From a virus (taxonomy: Duplodnaviria > Caudoviricetes), in IMG/VR virus record IMGVR_UViG_3300038379_000915, positions 1-35,876 of that record: a stretch of DNA of 35,876 bases; one strand, written 5' to 3'. Under the pieces are notes generated by a model. It did not search any database. It worked only from the letters and a program-made list of their open reading frames with translations, and was not told the DNA's origin. The translations under genes and the position numbers were made by a program. Every line of letters begins with the position of its first letter. The stretch's first letter is position 1. This document shows positions 12,634 through 27,644 of the stretch, piece after piece.

Positions 12634-12652
12634 GGTCGCAGGAGGATCGGCA

Positions 12653-13135
12653 ATGTCCGTCGAGATGGACCCGCTCAACTTCGACTTCACCCCCGCAAAC
12701 CTCGCGGGCTACGGCCTGAGCCCGGTGATCGCCGGCGACTACCTCTCGTACCGAGTCCAGTACGTGGTCGACGGCGTGGCGCAGTCGCTGCTTGACGCGG
12801 TGCTCGTGCTCACCCTGCGCAGGCGCGACGGCACGGTTGCGCCTGACGATCAGGTGCTGCAGCGACGGTCGCTCGACAACATAGCGGGCTGGACACCGAC
12901 GACCAAGCAGATCGCGATCGACGCAGACCAGTCGCAGGAGACGGAGACCGGCACCGGGAAGGGCTGGTACGCCATCAACTTCACGCCGCCGGATGAGGCC
13001 GCGCTCCTCGGGGTGCTCGGGCTGTGGCACTACGACGTGCGCGCGCTCTTCAGCGACGGCAGGGTGCGGACCCTCCTCCGCGGGCGCATGCAGATCCTCT
13101 CGCCGCGCACGGCCAGCACGCAGTTCACGCCGTAA
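12653..13135 (+). CDS. BppU-N-like/structural accessory protein
   Basis: SD GGAGGA; GD...YRV...V.G, G.WHYDV...DGRVRTLLRG pattern of BppU-like Ig-fold proteins. Confidence 0.55.
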   Translation: MSVEMDPLNFDFTPANLAGYGLSPVIAGDYLSYRVQYVVDGVAQSLLDAVLVLTLRRRDGTVAPDDQVLQRRSLDNIAGWTPTTKQIAIDADQSQETETGTGKGWYAINFTPPDEAALLGVLGLWHYDVRALFSDGRVRTLLRGRMQILSPRTASTQFTP

Positions 13136-17776: not shown

Positions 17777-18010
17777 CTAGTCCTCGGGAAACAGCCGGTC
17801 GAGCTCGGCCCTGACGCCGGCCAAGTCGCCGGCGAGCTGCGTCACCGCGCGAGGGTCGACGTCCTCCTGCTCCTCGAGCTGCTCGAGCCGGCGGTCGAGC
17901 GCGGCGAGCTGAGCGTCGACCTCGTCGCAGATGGCGGGCTGCAGGCCGCGGAAGCGCTCGACCTTGCCCTGGGCGTCAGCGAGTGCCACGCCCAGCCGCA
18001 GGACGGGCGC
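17777..18010 (-). pseudogene. Orphan coiled-coil C-terminal fragment, out of frame with the integrase
   Basis: Frame PVLRLGVALADAQGKVERF...AELDRLFPED* has coding-like codons but no SD. Confidence 0.45.
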
Positions 18011-18521
18011 CCTTGGCCCACGTGAGCCCGTAGGGCGTGGCGCCGCGCGCCTTCGCGCCGCGGGCGACCGCCTCGCGCACGCCGCGCATGAAGGCCTCGG
18101 TGCGCCGGCGCTGGTCCTCCGCCGCGATCGCCGCCGTGAGACCGGCCATGATGTCGCCCACGCCGGCGCGCAGGTCGAGCAGCTGGCCGGTGGCCATGAA
18201 CGCGACGCGCACGCCGGCGTCCTGCAGCGCGCCGAGGATCTCGCCCCGCTCGCGCCAGCTGTCGGTGCGGGTGAGGCGGGACATGTCGACCGCGACGAGG
18301 ACGTCGAAGCGGCCGGCGCGGGCGTCGGCGAGCAGTCGGCTGAAGCCGGTGCGCTGCTCGAGCTTGCCGGCGCTGGCGCTGCGCCCGTCGTCCACGTAGG
18401 TGCCAACGACGCGCCAGCCCTGGCGCTCGGCGTAGGCGGGGAGCTCGCGGAGCTGCGAGTCGATCGTGCGCAGCTGCTGCTGCTCGCGGGACGACACACG
18501 GGCGTAGATGGCTGCACGCAT
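17976..18521 (-). CDS. Serine recombinase/integrase, catalytic domain only (truncated large serine recombinase)
   Basis: MRAAIYARVSS (catalytic Ser), DDGRSA, R.GF.RLL.D...G.FD, SRLTR, helix E, then G..PYG where the recombinase domain begins, followed quickly by a stop; 181 aa. Confidence 0.85.
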   Translation of the reverse strand: MRAAIYARVSSREQQQLRTIDSQLRELPAYAERQGWRVVGTYVDDGRSASAGKLEQRTGFSRLLADARAGRFDVLVAVDMSRLTRTDSWRERGEILGALQDAGVRVAFMATGQLLDLRAGVGDIMAGLTAAIAAEDQRRRTEAFMRGVREAVARGAKARGATPYGLTWAKGARPAAGRGTR

Positions 18522-19916: not shown

Positions 19917-21460
19917 GACCGCTTGCCCTTCTTCGCCGGCTTCTCGGCTGGCGCAACGACCGCCGCGGCCAGCCGCTTCTCGATCGCCTTGAGGTCGACG
20001 CCGAAGGCCTTGCAGACCTCCTTGAAGTCCCCGTCGCCGACGCCCTCGGAGTACACGTCGGCGGCGTCCTGCAGGAGCAGCTCGGCCATGAGGCCCTGCG
20101 CCTGGGCGGCGGTGAGCTTCTTCTTCAGCAGCTTGTCCAGGTCGACGCCCCGACGCGCGGCGACCTTGACCTGCGCGCTGAACGCCATGTCGAGGAGGCG
20201 GTCGAGGATGTGCTCCCAGCCGGCTGCGCCGATGCCCTGCTCGGCGGCCGCGGCGATCTCGCCCATCGCCTCGGCGGCAACCTTCGCGTGCAGCTCGCGC
20301 GCGACCTTCTCGGCAGCGGCGTCCGCCTTGCTCTTCTTCGGCGGCGCGCCCGGGTCCCGATCGCTCTTCGAGACCATGCCCTTGTCCTTGAGGACCTTGT
20401 TGGCCACCGAGGTCTCGACGAGCTCGACGATCCGGCCGTCCTTCGGGTGGCGCGCGAGCACGACCGGCGCGCCCTTGCCGAGCACCTGCTTCCACTTCTT
20501 CCCGCCGTCGACCTTGGGGCAGTAGGCGTCGAGGTCGACGTAGCCCTGCGGCGGCCCCCACTCGCTCGGCCAGACCTCCTTGGCGGCCTTGGCGGTGAGC
20601 ACCTCGCCTCCCTTCTCCTTCGCCTCGCGCGTGCGGATCTGCCAGAGCGCCTCGACCTTGCTCTCGTAGCAGGGCGGGTCGGTGCACACGTCTGCACTCT
20701 CGATGTCCGGGAAGAGCTCGCGCTGGTTGCCGGTCCGCTTGAGGCACGTGGTGCACGACCCCGCCTCGGGGACCAGCATGTTGTCGGCGACCGCGAAGGG
20801 CGCCTCCTTCAGGAGCAGCGTGAACTGGCGCTGCAGCAGGTACGACGCCTCGCGCGCGGGGATGCGCTCGCCCTCGTCGCCGCGGTCCCAGTCGAGCAGC
20901 ACCTTGAGCGCCTTGTCCTGCAGCGCGACCGGCACCCGGGCGAGGTAGAGCGCGACGGAGGCCTCGAGCTTGCCCTCGCGGAAGGCGAGCCGCCCGGGCT
21001 TCTGCAGCGCGAGCAGCTTCATGCGCGCGTAGACATAGCCCTTCGAGCGGCCGACTCGGTCCGCGATCTGCTCCACCGCGTAGCCGTGCTCCTTGTGGAG
21101 CCGCTCGTAGCCCTCGGCCTCGTCGAGCGGGTGCAGGTCGCGCCGGCGCAGGTTCTCGACAAGGAGCAGCTCGAGCGCGTCGCGGTCGCCGAGCTCGCGG
21201 ACGATGAAGGGCATGGTCGGCCGGTTTGCGCGCCGCGACGCGTCCCAGCGGCAGTGGCCGAAGACGATCTCGTAGGGCGTGGGTCCCTCCGGCGTCGGCC
21301 GCGCCAGCCCGGGCGTGACCACGCCATGCTGGGCGACGCTGGCGACCAAGTCGTCGTCGGCCTTCCGGCTCTTGGGCTGGAAGGGGGAGGGGGTGAGCTG
21401 GTCGAGCGGTAGGTACTCGAAGCGCTCGGTTGGGGGGGAGGTCTCGGTCTGCGTGTCCAT
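19913..21460 (-). CDS. parB: ParB/RepB/Spo0J-family protein with Cys-rich C-terminal extension
   Basis: L..L.PSPFQP, YEIVFGHCRWDA (GxxRxxA), ENLRRRDLHPLDEAEGY, HTH IADRVGRS; CTTC.KRTG...C.DP.CY. Confidence 0.85.
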   Translation of the reverse strand: MDTQTETSPPTERFEYLPLDQLTPSPFQPKSRKADDDLVASVAQHGVVTPGLARPTPEGPTPYEIVFGHCRWDASRRANRPTMPFIVRELGDRDALELLLVENLRRRDLHPLDEAEGYERLHKEHGYAVEQIADRVGRSKGYVYARMKLLALQKPGRLAFREGKLEASVALYLARVPVALQDKALKVLLDWDRGDEGERIPAREASYLLQRQFTLLLKEAPFAVADNMLVPEAGSCTTCLKRTGNQRELFPDIESADVCTDPPCYESKVEALWQIRTREAKEKGGEVLTAKAAKEVWPSEWGPPQGYVDLDAYCPKVDGGKKWKQVLGKGAPVVLARHPKDGRIVELVETSVANKVLKDKGMVSKSDRDPGAPPKKSKADAAAEKVARELHAKVAAEAMGEIAAAAEQGIGAAGWEHILDRLLDMAFSAQVKVAARRGVDLDKLLKKKLTAAQAQGLMAELLLQDAADVYSEGVGDGDFKEVCKAFGVDLKAIEKRLAAAVVAPAEKPAKKGKRS

Positions 21461-21468
21461 GGGTCACC

Positions 21469-22476
21469 TCACTCGTCGTCCGAGCCGGGCTCGCGGGGTA
21501 GGGCAGAGGGGGCAGGCGGCGGCGCGGCCTTCTGGCCGGCGGCCTGCTGGACCTTCCCCTTGAATCTGCTCGGCGCCTGGGTCGGCGGCGCCGCCGGCGC
21601 GCCCTGGCCGCGCTCCTCGCGCCGCTGCTCCATGACAGCCGACCACGTGGTCTCGCCGTCCTTGATGGCCTGCCAGACGCCGCGGAGCTCGATCAGCTCG
21701 TCGGGTGTGGTGTCCTGCATCTTGTGGCCGAGGTACTCGGCGAGCGCCTCGGCGCGGATGCCGAGCTCGGCGAAGGCGTCCACCGCCATCCGCTTCTCGG
21801 CGTCGGGGTCCTTCGTGACCTGCCCGCGGAGCACGGCCTGCACCTGCTCCATGCCCTCCTCGAGCAGCCAGCCCGGGAAGATCCTGAAGACCAGGTTGCG
21901 CAGCGTCTTCGAGACGAGCGCGTTCTCCTTGTTCGACAGCTCGTCGTCGGTGGCAATCACCGTGTAGGTCTTGATCCCTTCGCTGTTCGTGCGAACCGAG
22001 ATCGGCACCTGGCCATCGCGCAGCGCGCGCCGCTCGACCGTCTTGGCGAAGGTGATGTCCTTCGACGCCGACGCGTTCGTCTCGAGGTCGACGACGGTGA
22101 CGCGAACGATCCGACGCTCCGGGTCGTCGTAGATGGTCGGCGTCGTCACGCGCAGGTTGCCGAAGACGCGCAGTGCCACCTCGGCCAGGCGGATCGAGGG
22201 GCCCTCGATTTTCTCCCTGCCGACCGGCTTCCGGTACCGCGCGATCTTCGCCAGGGAGGGGCGCGAGCACTCGCGGAGGAACCGGTCGCGCACGACCTCG
22301 AGGTCGCGCGGGCGCTGCAGCGCGACCACGTACTGCGACTCCACCTCGGCGCGCGCCTGCGCCGCGGCCGCGGTGATGGCGGTCTCGGCGACCTGCTGCA
22401 CCTGCAGCGCCCCGAGCTCCTGCCTCACGATCCCGTGCGCCGGCGCGGCCGGCACCATCATCGTCGTCTCGGACAT
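21469..22476 (-). CDS. Putative single-strand annealing/recombination protein
   Basis: Directly downstream of the YqaJ gene; ALQRPRD...YRKPVG..IEGPSIRLAE...FGN motif; acidic C-terminal tail (EPGSDDE). Confidence 0.6.
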   Translation of the reverse strand: MSETTMMVPAAPAHGIVRQELGALQVQQVAETAITAAAAQARAEVESQYVVALQRPRDLEVVRDRFLRECSRPSLAKIARYRKPVGREKIEGPSIRLAEVALRVFGNLRVTTPTIYDDPERRIVRVTVVDLETNASASKDITFAKTVERRALRDGQVPISVRTNSEGIKTYTVIATDDELSNKENALVSKTLRNLVFRIFPGWLLEEGMEQVQAVLRGQVTKDPDAEKRMAVDAFAELGIRAEALAEYLGHKMQDTTPDELIELRGVWQAIKDGETTWSAVMEQRREERGQGAPAAPPTQAPSRFKGKVQQAAGQKAAPPPAPSALPREPGSDDE

Positions 22477-22481
22477 GTCGA

Positions 22482-23492
22482 TCACTCCTCCGTGTCGGTG
22501 GCGCCGGCGTCCCTCAGCCGACGTGACGTGAACCGCGGGGCCGGATACGAGCGGCCGCGGCAGGCTTCCTCGAGCTGGGCGCGGCGCTCGGGCGAGGTCT
22601 TCGCCTCCTGCAGCAGCACCTCGGCGACGCGCTTCCAGTTCACCTTCCCGCGCTGCTCGACGTTGACGAACCGCCAGGCGTCGTTGGCGAACCCCTTCAC
22701 GCCCAGGTTGGCGGCGAGCGCGGCCAGGCGCTGCCGCAGCTCGGCCTTGCGGTGCTCGGCGCGCTCGATCGTGAGCAGCACCTCCTCGAGGTCGCTGGCG
22801 ATCATCTCGGCGGGGACGGTCGGCTCGATGCACTTGCCGCCGGCGCCGCGCATGCGCTCGTGCACGTAGCGCCACGCGGCGTCGCCGCCGTCGAAGTCCG
22901 GCGGGACGTTCGCCTGGACGTGGTCCCGCCAGAAGCGCTCTGCCACGTCGAGCAGGGCGGCCTCGACGTCCGTGTCGCGCTCGAGCGTGTAGGCGCGGAA
23001 GTCGTTGCCGTCGAGGAGCACGGCCACGTCCCAGCGCGGCAGGTCGGTGAGCGACATGTACCAGTGCGCCTGCGCCTGGACCTCGTCGGGCACGCCGGCC
23101 GCGCCGTCGCGCTCGGCTCCCCAGCGCCATGCCTGACGCAGGCCGCGCGCCTTGATCTCGAGGCCCCACTCGGCGGACGCCTGCGAGCTGGCGTTCACCA
23201 GCCGGTCGGGCGTGCCGAGCTGCCACGGGCGCGCCGCGTGGACGACGGTCGCCCCCTTCCACAGCGCGACGCCGAGGCGCTCGCGGTACTCGTCGGCGAT
23301 CACCGCCTCGAGCCGGTTGCCCCAGCGGGTGAAGCGGTTCTCCGGCGAGGGCTCGGCGCGACCGGTCTTCTCCGCCCACACGTCCCAGGCGGTGCGGTAC
23401 GGGTCGAGCCCGAGCAGGGCGGCGACGTCGCTGCCGCCGATGCCGCGGCGGCGCATTGCGAGTTGCTCGTCGCTGAGACCGAGCGCGGTCAC
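22482..23492 (-). CDS. yqaJ: YqaJ-like viral recombination exonuclease
   Basis: RRRGIGGSD.AA.LG..PY.T..DVW..K, WGNRLE..I, TPD, LEIK, Q..WYM. Confidence 0.9.
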   Translation of the reverse strand: MTALGLSDEQLAMRRRGIGGSDVAALLGLDPYRTAWDVWAEKTGRAEPSPENRFTRWGNRLEAVIADEYRERLGVALWKGATVVHAARPWQLGTPDRLVNASSQASAEWGLEIKARGLRQAWRWGAERDGAAGVPDEVQAQAHWYMSLTDLPRWDVAVLLDGNDFRAYTLERDTDVEAALLDVAERFWRDHVQANVPPDFDGGDAAWRYVHERMRGAGGKCIEPTVPAEMIASDLEEVLLTIERAEHRKAELRQRLAALAANLGVKGFANDAWRFVNVEQRGKVNWKRVAEVLLQEAKTSPERRAQLEEACRGRSYPAPRFTSRRLRDAGATDTEE

Positions 23493-23785
23493 GGCTGCGC
23501 CTCGCGCGCGGCGTCGGCCCGCACCAGCTCGACGCACTCCTTGCACATGTAGACGCCGTTGCCGTCCTCGTCGGTGTCGGAGGCGTTCGAGTACGCGACC
23601 AGGACCTCGCAGCGCTCGCACATCACCGAGTCGATGACGTCCATGACGAGCAGCGCCGGGTCGGCGTTCTCGACCACGTACTCGATCGCGTCCCTGGCGA
23701 TCGCCTCGAGCAGAACGCCCGGCACGCCGATGTAGCGGTAGCCGCCGTCGAGCCCTTTCAGGTAATTCACGATGCGCTTCTCCAT
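23489..23785 (-). CDS. Hypothetical protein with CxxC...CxxC
   Basis: SD AGGAGG; CERC and CKEC motifs. Confidence 0.7.
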   Translation of the reverse strand: MEKRIVNYLKGLDGGYRYIGVPGVLLEAIARDAIEYVVENADPALLVMDVIDSVMCERCEVLVAYSNASDTDEDGNGVYMCKECVELVRADAAREAQP

Positions 23786-23800
23786 GGTCGACCTCCTGTG

Positions 23801-23884
23801 TGGAGCCGAGGGGAGTCGAACCCCTCCACCGTGGCGCGCACCTGGGAGGATGGCGGTGCGCGCCGACGGGACCCGCGTGGCCCC
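23801..23884 (-). ncRNA. tRNA-Ala/tmRNA-TLD-like structured RNA (not a canonical tRNA)
   Basis: 5' GGGGCC pairs with 3' GGCTCC-A (G3:U70 wobble); T-arm GAGGGG-TTCGACT-CCCCTC; central 10-bp stem GGCGCGCACC/GGTGCGCGCC with a 12-nt loop; no D-stem. Confidence 0.7.
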
Positions 23885-23920
23885 AGATGCCCGCGTTCGG
23901 CGGCGGGCGCGCCATGCGAA

Positions 23921-24163
23921 CTAGGAGTCGGTCAACACGTCGACCTCGCCCGGCCCCACACCGAGCGGCCGACGCTCTCGCGTCTCCAGGCCTCGCGACC
24001 ACCTCCTGTCGACCTGGCGGTCGAGCCGCCTGGCCGAGTCGAACCCGTCGAGCCAGGCCTCGAGGCGCCCGTCGCGGGCGCGCTTCTCCGCCCACTCGAA
24101 GACCAGCGCCGCGCCGATGAGCGCGACGACGATGGCGAACACCACGAAGGCGGCGATCACCAC
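23921..24163 (-). CDS. Small N-terminal-TM protein
   Basis: VIAAFVVFAIVVALIGAALVF hydrophobic segment. Confidence 0.6.
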   Translation of the reverse strand: MVIAAFVVFAIVVALIGAALVFEWAEKRARDGRLEAWLDGFDSARRLDRQVDRRWSRGLETRERRPLGVGPGEVDVLTDS

Positions 24164-24327
24164 GCCCTCACGAGGGCCGCGACGATCATCGCGGTCCCGA
24201 TGCAGATGAGCGCCAGCGCCCAGCCCACGCCCGGCGCGGTGTACCAGCGCGGCCGGCGCGCCGGCGTCATGCGCTCGAGCCGCGGCGCGACGCGCTGGCC
24301 GTCGAGGATTCGTGAGCGGCTACGCAT
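24157..24327 (-). CDS. Small C-terminal-TM protein (56 aa)
   Basis: Read by hand: MRSRSRILDG...GWALALICIGTAMIVAALVRAW*. Confidence 0.55.
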   Translation of the reverse strand: MRSRSRILDGQRVAPRLERMTPARRPRWYTAPGVGWALALICIGTAMIVAALVRAW

Positions 24328-24583
24328 CGCCGTGCTCCCTCACTCGTCGCCGGCGCTCCGGGGTGACCTCTTCCTGCGGCATTCCGGCCGCCGAGCACGT
24401 GGCGCTCAGCGCGTCGACGAGGCCCGCGGCCAGGCCGCGCTGCGGCTCGCGGAAGCTCGTCGTGATGTGCAGCCGGCCCGCCTTGTCGAGTACGCAGAGC
24501 ACGACCATCGGCGCGTCCAGCTCGTCGCGCACGCCGCCGGCGACATCGACGAGCATCGCGTTGTCCATCGCGCCCTCAGGCAT
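24320..24583 (-). CDS. Hypothetical protein
   Basis: MPEGAMDNAMLVDV...; GC3-rich codons; overlaps its neighbours. Confidence 0.55.
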   Translation of the reverse strand: MPEGAMDNAMLVDVAGGVRDELDAPMVVLCVLDKAGRLHITTSFREPQRGLAAGLVDALSATCSAAGMPQEEVTPERRRRVREHGDA

Positions 24584-24938
24584 GGGCCGCTCCGTGCCGC
24601 GACCGGACGTGCGTGAAGCGCGCCATCGCGAGCTGCTCGTGCGCCCGCGCCTCGGCGAAGGCCTGGTAGGCGCGCCTCGCCTCCGCGGACTCGGCACCGA
24701 GCAGGTGCGCGAGGGCGCCGCACGCGTTGCTCGCCAGCGTGACCGCCGCGTGCGCCAGGTCGGCCGCGCGGGCGACGACGACCAGCTCGTCGCTCTGCCG
24801 CGCCTCCTCCTTGCACGCGCGCGCCTGCTCCGCGTATTCGACCACGCGCCGCGCCAGCTCGCGCCCGAAGTCCTCGAGCGACGCCGAGCGCAGCGACAGC
24901 TGGATGAGCGCCGCGTCCTCCACCGGGTGCAGGGCCAT
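24576..24938 (-). CDS. Hypothetical helical protein
   Basis: MALHPVEDAALIQLSL...; TGATG coupling with the upstream gene. Confidence 0.6.
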   Translation of the reverse strand: MALHPVEDAALIQLSLRSASLEDFGRELARRVVEYAEQARACKEEARQSDELVVVARAADLAHAAVTLASNACGALAHLLGAESAEARRAYQAFAEARAHEQLAMARFTHVRSRHGAAHA

Positions 24939-25105
24939 CACGGCACCACCACGCCGCTCGCGACGAGCAGCAGCAGGTACCCGCGCCGGCGCGCGCGACG
25001 CTGCACCGGCAGCGCACGCACCTCGGCGACGATCTCGCCGGTGGCCGGGTCGACCGCGAGCCACGCCTGGCCGCCGAGCGGCTGCATCACGGCGACGCGC
25101 CTCAC
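24938..25105 (-). CDS. Small hypothetical protein
   Basis: Read by hand: VRRVAVMQPLGGQAWLAVDPATGEIV...LLLLVASGVVVP*. Confidence 0.5.
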   Translation of the reverse strand: MRRVAVMQPLGGQAWLAVDPATGEIVAEVRALPVQRRARRRGYLLLLVASGVVVP

Positions 25106-25305
25106 GACGGCCCCACCCCGGCCTGCTCGGCCGCATGGATGAAGTCGTCCGCGTTCAGCAGCGTGAAGCGCGCGCAGACCGGCAGCGTGTGGACGAGCCC
25201 GGTCACGTTCCGCCGCGTCTCGGGATCCCGCACGTCGGCGAGCAGGATGTCGCCCTTGCAGAAGGGGCAGCGCTCGGCCGCGCCGTTCTTGACGAGCCGC
25301 TTCAC
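25102..25305 (-). CDS. Small CPFC-containing hypothetical protein
   Basis: VKRLVKNGAAERCPFC...H..P.C; GTGA overlaps. Confidence 0.55.
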   Translation of the reverse strand: MKRLVKNGAAERCPFCKGDILLADVRDPETRRNVTGLVHTLPVCARFTLLNADDFIHAAEQAGVGPS

Positions 25306-25652
25306 GCTGCCACCGCCTGCGGGGGCGAGGCGAACGGGCCGCGCGCGGTCAGCGTGAGCACCCACGCGTCCTGGTCGGCGGTGAGCTGCGCGGTGATGTC
25401 GAGGCCGTACTCGCGCCACTCCTCGAGCCAGGACTGGATGATCGCCTCGGCGACCGGCGCCTCGTAGACGACCAGCGTCAGCCACGTGAGCGGCCGCGAG
25501 AGGTGCTCGCTCGGCGGCGCGTCGAGCAGGAAGGACCCCTCGTGCTGCGTCTGCAGCTTCCGCAGCCGCTGGACCTGCGCCTCGTACGACTTGCGCTCGG
25601 TGCGCGCGGTCGCGCGCGGCGAGCAGACCCGGGTGACGATCGAATCGTTCAT
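25302..25652 (-). CDS. Hypothetical protein
   Basis: 116-aa ORF with SD GGAGG and ATGA overlap. Confidence 0.6.
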   Translation of the reverse strand: MNDSIVTRVCSPRATARTERKSYEAQVQRLRKLQTQHEGSFLLDAPPSEHLSRPLTWLTLVVYEAPVAEAIIQSWLEEWREYGLDITAQLTADQDAWVLTLTARGPFASPPQAVAA

Positions 25653-26131
25653 GACCTACCTCCCACGTGACGCCAGGTCACGCCCTTGACCACGTTCCGC
25701 ACCGTCTGCGGCCGCACACCGAAGCGGGGCGCCAGGCTCCCGATCGAGGAGCCGGCGGCGTACAGCTCGCGCATCTCGCTGACCTGCTGGTCCGAGAGCT
25801 TCGCCGCGCCTCGGGCGGGCTGGCCCGCTGCGCCGTGCCGCCGCCGCTTGCCGCGCCCCTTGGCGGCGCAGTCCGCCATGTTCTCCGCGTGAGTGCCCAC
25901 GCGCAGGTGCGAGGGCCGCACGCACGCGGGGTTGTCACAGGCATGAAGGACGTGCCCGGCAACCTTGCCGAGCGTCAGCGCCAGCGCGACGCGGTGCGCG
26001 CCCACGAGTCGCCCACGGAGCCAGAAGACTCCGTAGCCGTGGAGGCTGCGCCCGCCGCGCCACTCCCAGCAGCCGTCGCCGATGGCGACCTTCGACCAGA
26101 AGCGGGACTCGTCGTCGCCTGGCCGCCTCAT
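25649..26131 (-). CDS. HNH endonuclease with C-terminal HTH
   Basis: CWEW.G...GYG...AHR...VLHACDNPACVRPSHL..GT..EN..D; C-terminal HTH ending V.G.TW.H. Confidence 0.9.
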   Translation of the reverse strand: MRRPGDDESRFWSKVAIGDGCWEWRGGRSLHGYGVFWLRGRLVGAHRVALALTLGKVAGHVLHACDNPACVRPSHLRVGTHAENMADCAAKGRGKRRRHGAAGQPARGAAKLSDQQVSEMRELYAAGSSIGSLAPRFGVRPQTVRNVVKGVTWRHVGGRS

Positions 26132-26346
26132 GACACCCTCGCGACGAGCACGACGAATTCCCGGCCGTCCACCGCCGCGGCGCCCGAGAGCACGCGCAGC
26201 AGGTCACGCTTCGTTCGGCCGCCGACGAGCAGGCTCGCGTAGAGCAGCTGCTCGCGCTCGGTGTCGTTCGCCGGCGGCAGCAGCATCGGCGCGCGCGCGA
26301 TGGCGATCACCGCCAGACCTCCGGCTCGCCGTAGCCCGGACGCCAC
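26128..26346 (-). CDS. Small hypothetical protein (start uncertain, possibly near 26311)
   Basis: Fills the operon gap; GC3-rich 3' part. Confidence 0.4.
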   Translation of the reverse strand: MASGLRRAGGLAVIAIARAPMLLPPANDTEREQLLYASLLVGGRTKRDLLRVLSGAAAVDGREFVVLVARVS

Positions 26347-26567
26347 CGCGCGTCAGCGGAGGCCTGCGCCTCGCGCGCCTCGATGCGCTCGGCCTCCTCG
26401 ATGTCGAGCACGCCGCCGCCGCCGCAGTCCCAGCAGCGACAGTAGGCGACGCGGCCGTCGCCGGCGCAGGTCGGGCACCACGCGAGATCGCAGCCGCAGG
26501 CGCCCGTGTCGCCGCAGTGGTGGCACTCGATCGCGGCTGGAAGCTCCGACGAGAGCGCGTCTCTCAT
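26307..26567 (-). CDS. First gene of the leftward operon; DnaJ-type CxxCxGxG zinc-finger protein
   Basis: CHHCGDTG, CPTCAGDG and CWDCGGGG repeats. Confidence 0.7.
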   Translation of the reverse strand: MRDALSSELPAAIECHHCGDTGACGCDLAWCPTCAGDGRVAYCRCWDCGGGGVLDIEEAERIEAREAQASADARWRPGYGEPEVWR

Positions 26568-26627
26568 GAACGTGAGAGTTACTCACGCCATGAGTGTCTG
26601 TCAACTAGATTGGTGAGACTTTCTCAC
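26551..26627 (-). promoter_or_regulatory. PL-like promoter (TTGACA at 26599-26604) with operators GTGAG-N5-CTCAC
   Basis: Operators at 26551-26565 (GAGAG/CTCTC), 26572-26586 and 26613-26627; weak copy at 26590-26604. Confidence 0.8.
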
Positions 26628-26674
26628 GAATAGAGCGGCGGCGGGAAGTTCCGGGTCGCCGGCGACGAACGACT

Positions 26675-27031
26675 TCACCAACTCGCGCAGCGCCTGGTAC
26701 TCGTCGGGCCTTCTGGCCTTGAGCTCCAAGAGCAGGCGCAGGACGTCACGCTCCCCCACACTTCCGACGCTACACGAACGGCACACCGATGTCGATTGAG
26801 AAGATCGAGGTCTTCCTCGGTGACCGCGGCGGGCTGGCTGGGGAGCGGAATGCCCGTGTACTCGGAGATCGGTAGGACCCAGGTCGAGGTCTTGTACTCG
26901 TCGGGGCGGTTCACCAGCTGCGAGATGTTCGAGGGGTCGCAGCCGATCGCCTTGGCGAGCTCGGTCTGGCGGCCGCGCTTCTGAAAGAGCCACATCCGGA
27001 GCGCCTCGCGGAACTCGTCGGTCACCACCAT
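26675..27031 (-). CDS. CI-like XRE HTH repressor (3' part appears frameshifted)
   Basis: QTELAKAIGCDPSNISQLVN HTH; divergent from the Cro-like gene; flanked by operators. Confidence 0.75.
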   Translation of the reverse strand: MVVTDEFREALRMWLFQKRGRQTELAKAIGCDPSNISQLVNRPDEYKTSTWVLPISEYTGIPLPSQPAAVTEEDLDLLNRHRCAVRVASEVWGSVTSCACSWSSRPEGPTSTRRCASW

Positions 27032-27065
27032 CAGTTGGGCCGCTACCGGAGCGCCGGCTCATAGA

Positions 27066-27138
27066 TTGAGCAATACTCTCAAACATCTAGAGAGTCCCTC
27101 ACAAAGTGCTTGACGTAATCGTGAGGAACTCTCACGAT
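27066..27138 (+). promoter_or_regulatory. PR-like promoter (TTGACG-17-CACGAT) with three operators
   Basis: Operators at 27066-27080, 27088-27102 and 27121-27135 (extended palindrome AATCGTGAG-N5-CTCACGATT); -35 at 27110-27115, -10 at 27133-27138. Confidence 0.8.
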
Positions 27139-27144
27139 TGCGGC

Positions 27145-27462
27145 ATGTCTGAAATGAGCCTGGGCGCGCGGCTGCGGGCCGTTCGCGAGGACCGGAAGAT
27201 CAGCCGCGCCGACGTCGCCAAGGCGCTCGCCTGCCACCCGACCAACATCGCGCACATCGAGAGCGATCGGCACCGCCCGAGCGTCGAGCAGCTGCAGGTG
27301 ATGGCGCGCCTCTTCGGCTGCACCATCGACGCGCTCGTCCAGGGGCCGCTGCCCATCGCGCTCGACGAGCCGCCACCGGCGGAGCAGGCCGAGGCGGCCG
27401 CACCGCCTGCGGACGCCAAGTCCGACTGGAAGTGGCGGAAGCTGGTCGGCGAGGGCGCGTAG
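27145..27462 (+). CDS. Cro-like XRE HTH regulator
   Basis: LGARLRAVREDRKISRADVAKAL...IAHIE....PS...L..MARLF. Confidence 0.85.
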   Translation: MSEMSLGARLRAVREDRKISRADVAKALACHPTNIAHIESDRHRPSVEQLQVMARLFGCTIDALVQGPLPIALDEPPPAEQAEAAAPPADAKSDWKWRKLVGEGA

Positions 27463-27470
27463 TGGGCGCG

Positions 27471-27644
27471 CTACTGCCGCTGCCTGGCCAAGAGCGCAGC
27501 CTCCTGTGCGATCTGCTTCGCCAGCCCCTCGAACGCGCGAGCGAAGCGCTCGTTGCGGTCGGCGTCGCAGCGTTCCCAGTGAGGGACGTGAGGCCAGCGC
27601 TCGACGCAGTCGATGGACACCACCAGCGTCGCGCCGTAGTACAT
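27471..27644 (-). CDS. Small antisense-oriented hypothetical protein (57 aa)
   Basis: MYYGATLVVSIDCVERW...QEAALLARQRQ*; GC3-rich codons on the minus strand. Confidence 0.4.
   Translation of the reverse strand: MYYGATLVVSIDCVERWPHVPHWERCDADRNERFARAFEGLAKQIAQEAALLARQRQ

Follow-up and report, generated by a model that had tools for sequence, protein, structure and literature searches.

Small RNAs that resemble, in one respect or another, the element described here have been known from phages, bacteria and organelles. The CI RNA of phage P4 is processed and acts in trans, and according to PMC4825925 it pairs with sites lying both upstream and downstream, in the layout called seqA/seqC. The precursor of C4 is described as a substrate of RNase P (PMC4919922), and c4 is listed as an RNA family (PMC2864571). 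According to PMC5499578, both C4 and CI are without an equivalent of the T-loop. Another group is formed by anti-SD loops of the NfeR1/cuckoo type, in which a hairpin loop on a variable stem silences several mRNAs in trans (PMC10746234). Cuckoo RNAs consist of two to four adjacent hairpins, each with CCUCCUCCC, and are without a tRNA-like domain (PMC4615179). Mycobacteriophage DS6A provides the precedent of a tag-less (TLD-only) tmRNA (as reported in PMC4131195 and PMC11915505). In plant mitochondria, t-elements are tRNA-like folds with a conserved T arm that are found near gene starts, and cuts by RNase P and RNase Z have been proposed for them (PMC1920247).

The window, by which we mean the whole 35,876-nt stretch of viral DNA that was analysed, carries a tRNA-like RNA with a large anti-SD loop on its minus strand (Table 1). 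Like P4 CI and P1/P7 C4, it is a small phage RNA within its own operon, and its processing is predicted here. Two SD-like copies in the window flank the element upstream and downstream and recall P4 seqA/seqC, but the pairing is weak, at background levels of 3% and 12%. Unlike CI and C4, however, the window RNA has a full T arm, it gives no match to Rfam c4 (RF01695), and no specific flanking target is demonstrable for it. With cuckoo RNAs, alpha-r14 and NfeR1 it shares the anti-SD sequence in a hairpin loop, as do two look-alikes discussed below (L525 and L526), whose loops read CCUCCUCC. In contrast to cuckoo RNAs, the window has one loop with CCUCC only, placed on a tRNA scaffold, and the ar14 model (RF02344) scored 14 bits on the window against a cut-off of 58.8. 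The likeness to the DS6A RNA extends to a length of about 80 nt, an alanine-type acceptor, a T arm, a missing D stem and a long helix that replaces the anticodon arm, whereas the window RNA differs from it in having no RF00023 score and no GAC...GGAC, and in possessing a 6+6 split and the large anti-SD loop. The t-elements differ in being organellar, and no antisense loop is described for them in the passages of PMC1920247 consulted. By analogy, the element would act like P1 C4, P4 CI, t-elements and cuckoo RNAs, but it belongs to none of them.

The virus record is 35.9 kb long with 71.5% GC, and the element fills the 135-nt gap between the stop codon at 23921 and the ATG at 23785. The 98-aa ORF that begins at this ATG matched only itself and had no Pfam or PHROG family, and the Atlas was uninformative on it. 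Neither a sigma-70 promoter nor an intrinsic terminator was found in 21000-27500. By protein, the nearest relative is P0002 (81%), and the one named homolog, in a Polyangiaceae genome, gives a weak hint of the host. The only sequencing run containing the stretch, possibly its source, showed no differences. The window also encodes a lone serine resolvase catalytic domain (PF00239) at 17976-18521 on the minus strand, followed by a 70-aa ORF.

Table 1. Features of the tRNA-like element and of its surroundings in the window.
Feature	Position	Strand	Remarks
tRNA-like RNA, 84 nt (G1 to A73 equivalents)	23801..23884	(-)	
Acceptor stem, 6 bp, G3·U70	23884-23879 : 23807-23802	(-)	A73 at 23801
D-loop-like region, 9 nt, has GG, no D stem	23878-23870	(-)	
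Central stalk, 4 bp + bulged C + 10 bp (14 bp)	23829..23869	(-)	
12-nt loop, anti-SD core CCUCC	23854-23843	(-)	predicted fully unpaired
T arm	23808..23826	(-)	stem 6 bp, 23826-23821 : 23813-23808
Canonical 7-nt T-loop	23820-23814	(-)	
Upstream hairpin, 6-bp stem + 8-nt loop	23908-23889	(-)	4 nt 5' of G1
SD of next gene	23797-23792	(-)	starts 4 nt past A73; ATG at 23785
98-aa orphan ORF	23489..23785	(-)	two CxxC motifs; YqaJ/RecE-like gene directly after
Second copy of 9-mer around SD	24001..24009	(-)	125 nt upstream, inside preceding ORF
Divergent repressor pair	26675-27462		
Leftward early operon			end = YqaJ/RecE-like nuclease, phrog_3657, ParB
Tail genes; replication genes	window		

The tRNA-like element in the window is real. 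All letters and helices put forward in the initial annotation were found on the minus strand, including the 6+6-bp minihelix, the G3:U70 pair, the A discriminator and the long central helix, as was the lack of a D stem, and the further hairpin ahead of the element (23889-23908) was likewise confirmed. The acceptor and T stems are stacked as 6+6 = 12 bp. Folding gave z-scores of -3.0 to -3.4 with none of 200 shuffles equally stable, and the element is the only strict 12-bp acceptor/T minihelix of the window, where 0.03 are expected from 100 Markov-simulated windows. In the energy model, a competing 5' hairpin and the acceptor fold are equal in stability (-50.9 vs -50.5 kcal/mol), with P(acceptor) = 0.56, and the D-loop-like region can alternatively fold back onto the 5' strand. 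The small 3' hairpin that directly follows position 73 in most look-alikes is absent from the window. In one fold, a long-range stem masked the AUG of the precursor; it was gone in longer folds and was rejected.

Assignment to a known class gave mostly negative results. The ARAGORN and Infernal/Rfam checks advised in the initial annotation both missed the element: ARAGORN found nothing in the window, and in Rfam nothing reached a cut-off, all matches at E<=10 being far under it. As compared with tRNA (RF00005), the D stem and the 7-nt anticodon loop are both lacking. The identity set of tRNA-Ala is G3·U70 plus A73; this set is complete in the window copy, and the CCA end is not encoded, so that CCA would need to be attached afterwards. 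A D-stem-less domain with acceptor and T arm is a tmRNA-like feature that the element does have. Identity as a tmRNA was ruled out by two results. RF00023 gave no match in the window even at E<=10, with three tag-less tmRNA controls scoring 60-68 bits on the same model, and the GAC...GGAC junction, which we take to be the SmpB site, is absent from the element and present in most tag-less tmRNA matches. IMG/VR contigs often carry tag-less mini-tmRNAs, 65-85 nt long (L120-L177, L378-L497). An attP copy of a tRNA 3' end was also rejected, as both acceptor strands exist and an integrase is not adjacent.

Two other viral contigs (L525 and L526) carry an RNA of the same length and plan, again with an upstream hairpin. 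They were obtained with a pattern demanding CCTCC and GGAGG and were chosen by eye from 81 distinct matches. They match the window in length (83-84 nt), 6+6 split, D region and the upstream stem with its 8-nt loop, none of which was required by the search pattern. Their alignment with the window is nearly gapless, upstream hairpin and 6+6 split included; this hairpin has the same size as that of the window and contains one compensatory pair. RNAalifold gave the same four helices, with compensatory changes in 5 of 29 pairs. The 6+6 split is found in 15 of the 516 minihelices in the loci gathered. On model R2, built from L525 and L526 only, the window is the top non-seed match from 100 sources (40.4 bits), followed by a tag-less tmRNA at 35.6 bits and then by 28.8, a structural margin of about 5 bits. 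Judging from these sequences, the window element is likely homologous to L525/L526; this is not proven, because the seeds were picked by eye and their sequence-only profile scored the window at no more than 9.5 bits. Both contigs have C-G at position 3:70. Their RNA lies between the portal gene and an orphan ORF, with a minor head gene next in L526. Since the ORFs 3' of the element are orphans in the window as well as in L526, a toxin/antitoxin reading of these ORFs has no support.

A wider set of similar RNAs is the Mu-like family (L512-L520, L503 and L258), comprising 11 acceptor/T-arm RNAs that have pyrimidine anti-SD loops and covary strongly. They are located in the phage early leader, between the repressor and ner/transposase, and among the members scanned no match to an Rfam family reached its cut-off. 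When Ner was used as the anchor of a search, 13 loci were obtained, in which the RNA is present in 9/9 near-full-length relatives (five of them seeds) and in 0/4 weak partial Ner matches. In an alignment fitted to the model, 95.9% of cells pair and 9/20 pairs are compensatory, above all slid controls. All 11 loops keep 4-7 nt of the anti-SD sequence (CCUCC in eight, UCCUU in two, CUCC in one). Four of the eight CCUCC members were selected for CCUCC; among the seven members found without this requirement, CCUCC occurs in four, UCCUU in two and CUCC in one. On the family model R1, the window reaches 31.3 bits, a score that generic tRNA-like RNAs also attain, and Mu-like members outside the seed of that model score 40-71 bits. 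Because the window does no better than generic tRNA-like RNAs, the Mu-like family is to be regarded as an analogue of the window element rather than as demonstrated kin. Compensatory changes, the covariation check that the initial annotation had called for, were found both in the L525/L526 comparison and in the Mu-like family, and the idea of a tRNA-like phage RNA with an anti-SD loop, likely processed by RNase P and a 3' enzyme, is supported, the plan recurring with such changes in other phages. In all 10 Mu-like members examined, a conserved leader segment of about 100 nt starting with TTGACA and containing two variable hairpins lies 5' of the RNA (L512:2674-2770 and equivalents); it is possibly a second structured RNA.

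Of the 14 elements, 9 have G3·U70, 13 have A73, 13 have the upstream hairpin and none encodes CCA. G3·U70 is lost in 5 of the 13 look-alikes, three of the Mu-like members having A-U at 3:70. By a stricter rule, an upstream hairpin accompanies 61 of the 516 minihelices. In scans for alanine-type acceptor/T RNAs, the majority of matches were tRNAs or tag-less tmRNAs. Unselected scans yielded three CCUCC-loop RNAs (L176, L379 and L465), all of the Mu-like leader family, and CCTCC was seen in 5 of 76 non-tRNA acceptor/T RNAs from such scans against 3 expected. The CCUCC loop is a family trait and not a general one among tRNA-like RNAs.

Closer relatives were not detected by other searches. Annotated phages searched with the element by BLAST yielded nothing beyond T-arm/3' matches to tmRNA or tRNA and chance matches, and the exact 3' 27-mer did not occur in IMG/VR. 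A metagenome scan covering 10 of 64 parts returned at least 96 distinct matches, of which half are tRNAs and one is a member of the Mu-like family (L258). The pattern of an Ala acceptor plus YCCTCC had seven viral matches (six Mu-like and one with CCUCC in a stem) and seven in GTDB (five Lachnospiraceae/Clostridia tRNA-like RNAs and two that are probably chance). These five (L505:4010-4082, L506, L509, L510 and L511) are tRNA bodies with a full D arm that score 47-52 bits with Rfam tRNA. Their anticodon loop is enlarged to the UCCUCCC type, with a UUCG hairpin in front, and they are intergenic among prophage-like early genes; the pattern demanded CCTCC. The initial annotation had linked the element to the recombination genes downstream, which turned out to be incidental: a strict scan of 80 phages that have the downstream phrog_3657 gene in common found two minihelices, neither of the window type, and thus such an element in 0/80. 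No description of such an RNA was found in the mostly non-subscription literature covered.

What the loop may bind was analysed in the window. The complementarity noticed initially between the loop and the SD plus AUG of the next gene is present, but it is weak: it amounts to 5+4 bp, needs a 6-nt bulge and reaches -10.9 kcal/mol, a value matched by 12% of all 25-nt windows. For loop binding, the own start ranks 35th of 58 predicted starts (gene calls from our own codon model), and the bulged pairing is not confined to this start: genes elsewhere that have GGAGG and AUGG offer it too, and for the tape-measure gene it reaches -13.9. No own-target preference was seen across 15 elements including L059 (p=0.13 by permutation; window residual +1.8), nor an own-downstream preference in the Mu-like 11 (p=0.12). 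With this rank and this p value, the switch that had been proposed specifically for the next gene's SD and start codon is not borne out. Start regions in general gave a different result. Against the 58 start regions, the loop binds at -3.25 kcal/mol over background, shuffled loops at -1.76 +/- 0.51, and 0/150 of the latter do as well as the real loop. Among starts, the best partners are those at 2289 and 12653, which belong to the late region. The predicted anti-SD loop probably binds to start regions in general and does not favour the next gene over others. A random 12-mer of the window holds CCTCC 1.3% of the time, and the chance for the lone window copy is about 1-2%.

The 9-mer around the SD has only two sites in the contig (24009 and 23799). 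The duplex between the loop and the upstream copy has -13.9 kcal/mol, in the top 3% of windows, and this copy is a possible upstream target of the loop, albeit of doubtful significance. An identical 13-mer beginning with AGGAGG is found at 12640 and 19780 on the plus strand, the former at the start of the late gene at 12653 and the latter antisense inside the early operon. The two sites rank with the best partners of the loop (-18.2 kcal/mol). In L525/L526, loop complementarity to the bases preceding their SD was dropped from consideration because those bases can form the 3' hairpin.

RNase P and RNase Z recognize the 12-bp stack, the T-loop and the GG of the D region. It is such features, and not the alanine identity, that are conserved across the elements. 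We put at about 50% the probability that a stable anti-SD small RNA of about 84 nt, acting in trans, is cut out by the host's RNase P together with a 3' tRNA-processing enzyme. The acceptor/T stack together with the T-loop and the D-region GG would be read as a pre-tRNA, and cuts at G1 (23884) and after A73 (23801) would free the RNA. The mRNA piece upstream of the RNA would be left with a new 3' end, which the upstream hairpin may protect, and the piece on the other side would start at the SD of the orphan/RecE/phrog_3657/ParB genes. The operon would therefore survive excision, one piece being capped by a hairpin and the other starting with an SD. In the freed RNA, the stalk would keep the anti-SD loop exposed, so that CCUCC could pair in trans with ribosome-binding sites of the GGAGG type and initiation would be dampened on several mRNAs, be they of phage late or early genes, of host genes or of a superinfecting phage. 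Pairing in cis would be unlikely in the folded form, because the SD sits by the acceptor end and the loop lies at a long distance from it.

A broader proposal, which we advance tentatively and at odds somewhat below even, is that unrelated phages repeatedly use the top half of tRNA as a self-excising cassette presenting a trans-silencing anti-SD loop. As part of the same proposal, the cassettes would form a class excised by RNase P/Z, with flanking hairpins keeping both mRNA pieces intact, and the sites of this tRNA-scaffolded class would include a lambdoid-type early operon, a head operon, Mu-like leaders and the D-armed Lachnospiraceae/Clostridia prophage-like regions. If true, this would be an undescribed phage route to a stable regulatory RNA inside an operon, without promoter or terminator, in which the host tRNA-processing machinery is borrowed and the product is aimed at ribosome-binding sites. 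Three known ideas would come together in one 110-nt unit, namely RNase P-matured immunity RNAs, the punctuation by t-elements and anti-SD small RNAs, and the unit would be a natural counterpart of the engineered tRNA scaffold.

Several other explanations can be considered for the element. The fold may serve for punctuation only, directing RNase P/Z cuts by which the early transcript is divided and stabilised, in the manner of a t-element, with CCUCC being incidental. The flanking hairpins, the CCA-less ends and the variable position 3:70 are consistent with this, and so are the mid-operon position in the window and L525/L526 and the fact that CCUCC is not enriched across tRNA-like RNAs generally. 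However, cutting does not need a long stalk with an exposed loop, and in 7/7 unselected Mu-like members the stems vary but 4-7 nt of the anti-SD are retained; we consider this explanation unlikely. It is very unlikely that the loop acts as a clamp on the adjacent SD and AUG until processing frees them. The close SD and its 5+4 bp complementarity would suit such a cis switch, as would the presence of GGAGG within about 30 nt in 7/11 Mu-like members and the joint absence of CCUCC and nearby GGAGG in L515 and L516. Against it stand the low rank of the own start, the like pairing of the tape-measure gene and the lack of own-target preference, and L513 retains CCUCC without a nearby SD. Moreover, from tRNA geometry, the 4-nt tether would be too short to reach a loop at the far end of the L-shaped fold.

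The proposed trans-acting RNA also has to be weighed against a decoy, that is, a degenerate tag-less tmRNA or alanylated mimic titrating SmpB, AlaRS or EF-Tu, or soaking up a nuclease that attacks tRNA or the 16S tail. The initial annotation had raised a tmRNA/alanine decoy, for which the support is weak at best. The alanine identity set is complete in the window copy, and RF00023 scores two Mu-like members weakly, at 17-22 bits. Phages often carry tag-less tmRNAs, the DS6A RNA being a precedent as reported (PMC4131195; PMC11915505). Yet the window gives no RF00023 match and has no GAC...GGAC of the tag-less class, and 3:70 is changed in the other elements, to C-G in L525/L526 and to A-U in the three Mu-like members, G3·U70 being lost in those five look-alikes. 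A decoy thus appears quite unlikely. Highly improbable, in our opinion, is a remnant with no current role, whether from the decay of a tRNA-Ala or from attP-type copying of the 3' end of a host tRNA. Its 3' 26 nt are within 2 mismatches of nine places in the gathered loci, seven of which are ordinary tRNA-Ala-type genes, and a close homolog was not found by BLAST against annotated phages, by the IMG/VR 3' 27-mer or by the IMG/VR and GTDB pattern. The origin as a mere copy of a host tRNA 3' end, which the initial annotation had named as one of the findings that would overturn its view, is at variance with a 5' acceptor strand that is present in register, so that both strands are there, and the stalk contains a helix of 10 bp without a mismatch. 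The proteins scanned in the window included no tyrosine integrase; the nearest recombinase domain, and the sole recombinase match, is the serine resolvase 5.3 kb off. A remnant would also not be expected from a plan that recurs elsewhere with covariation.

Some further tRNA-like units were observed among the loci gathered. At L297:290-383 (-), tandem alanine-acceptor/T-arm units with differing middles lie beside a tRNA-Ala-like gene. Streptomyces phage phiScoe44 has an unannotated acceptor/T minihelix of about 49 nt in an intergenic gap before an SD (L118:1478-1526). At L059:565-646 (minus-strand numbering), a 6+6 minihelix carries a ACCUCCUU loop directly ahead of an SD and ATG.
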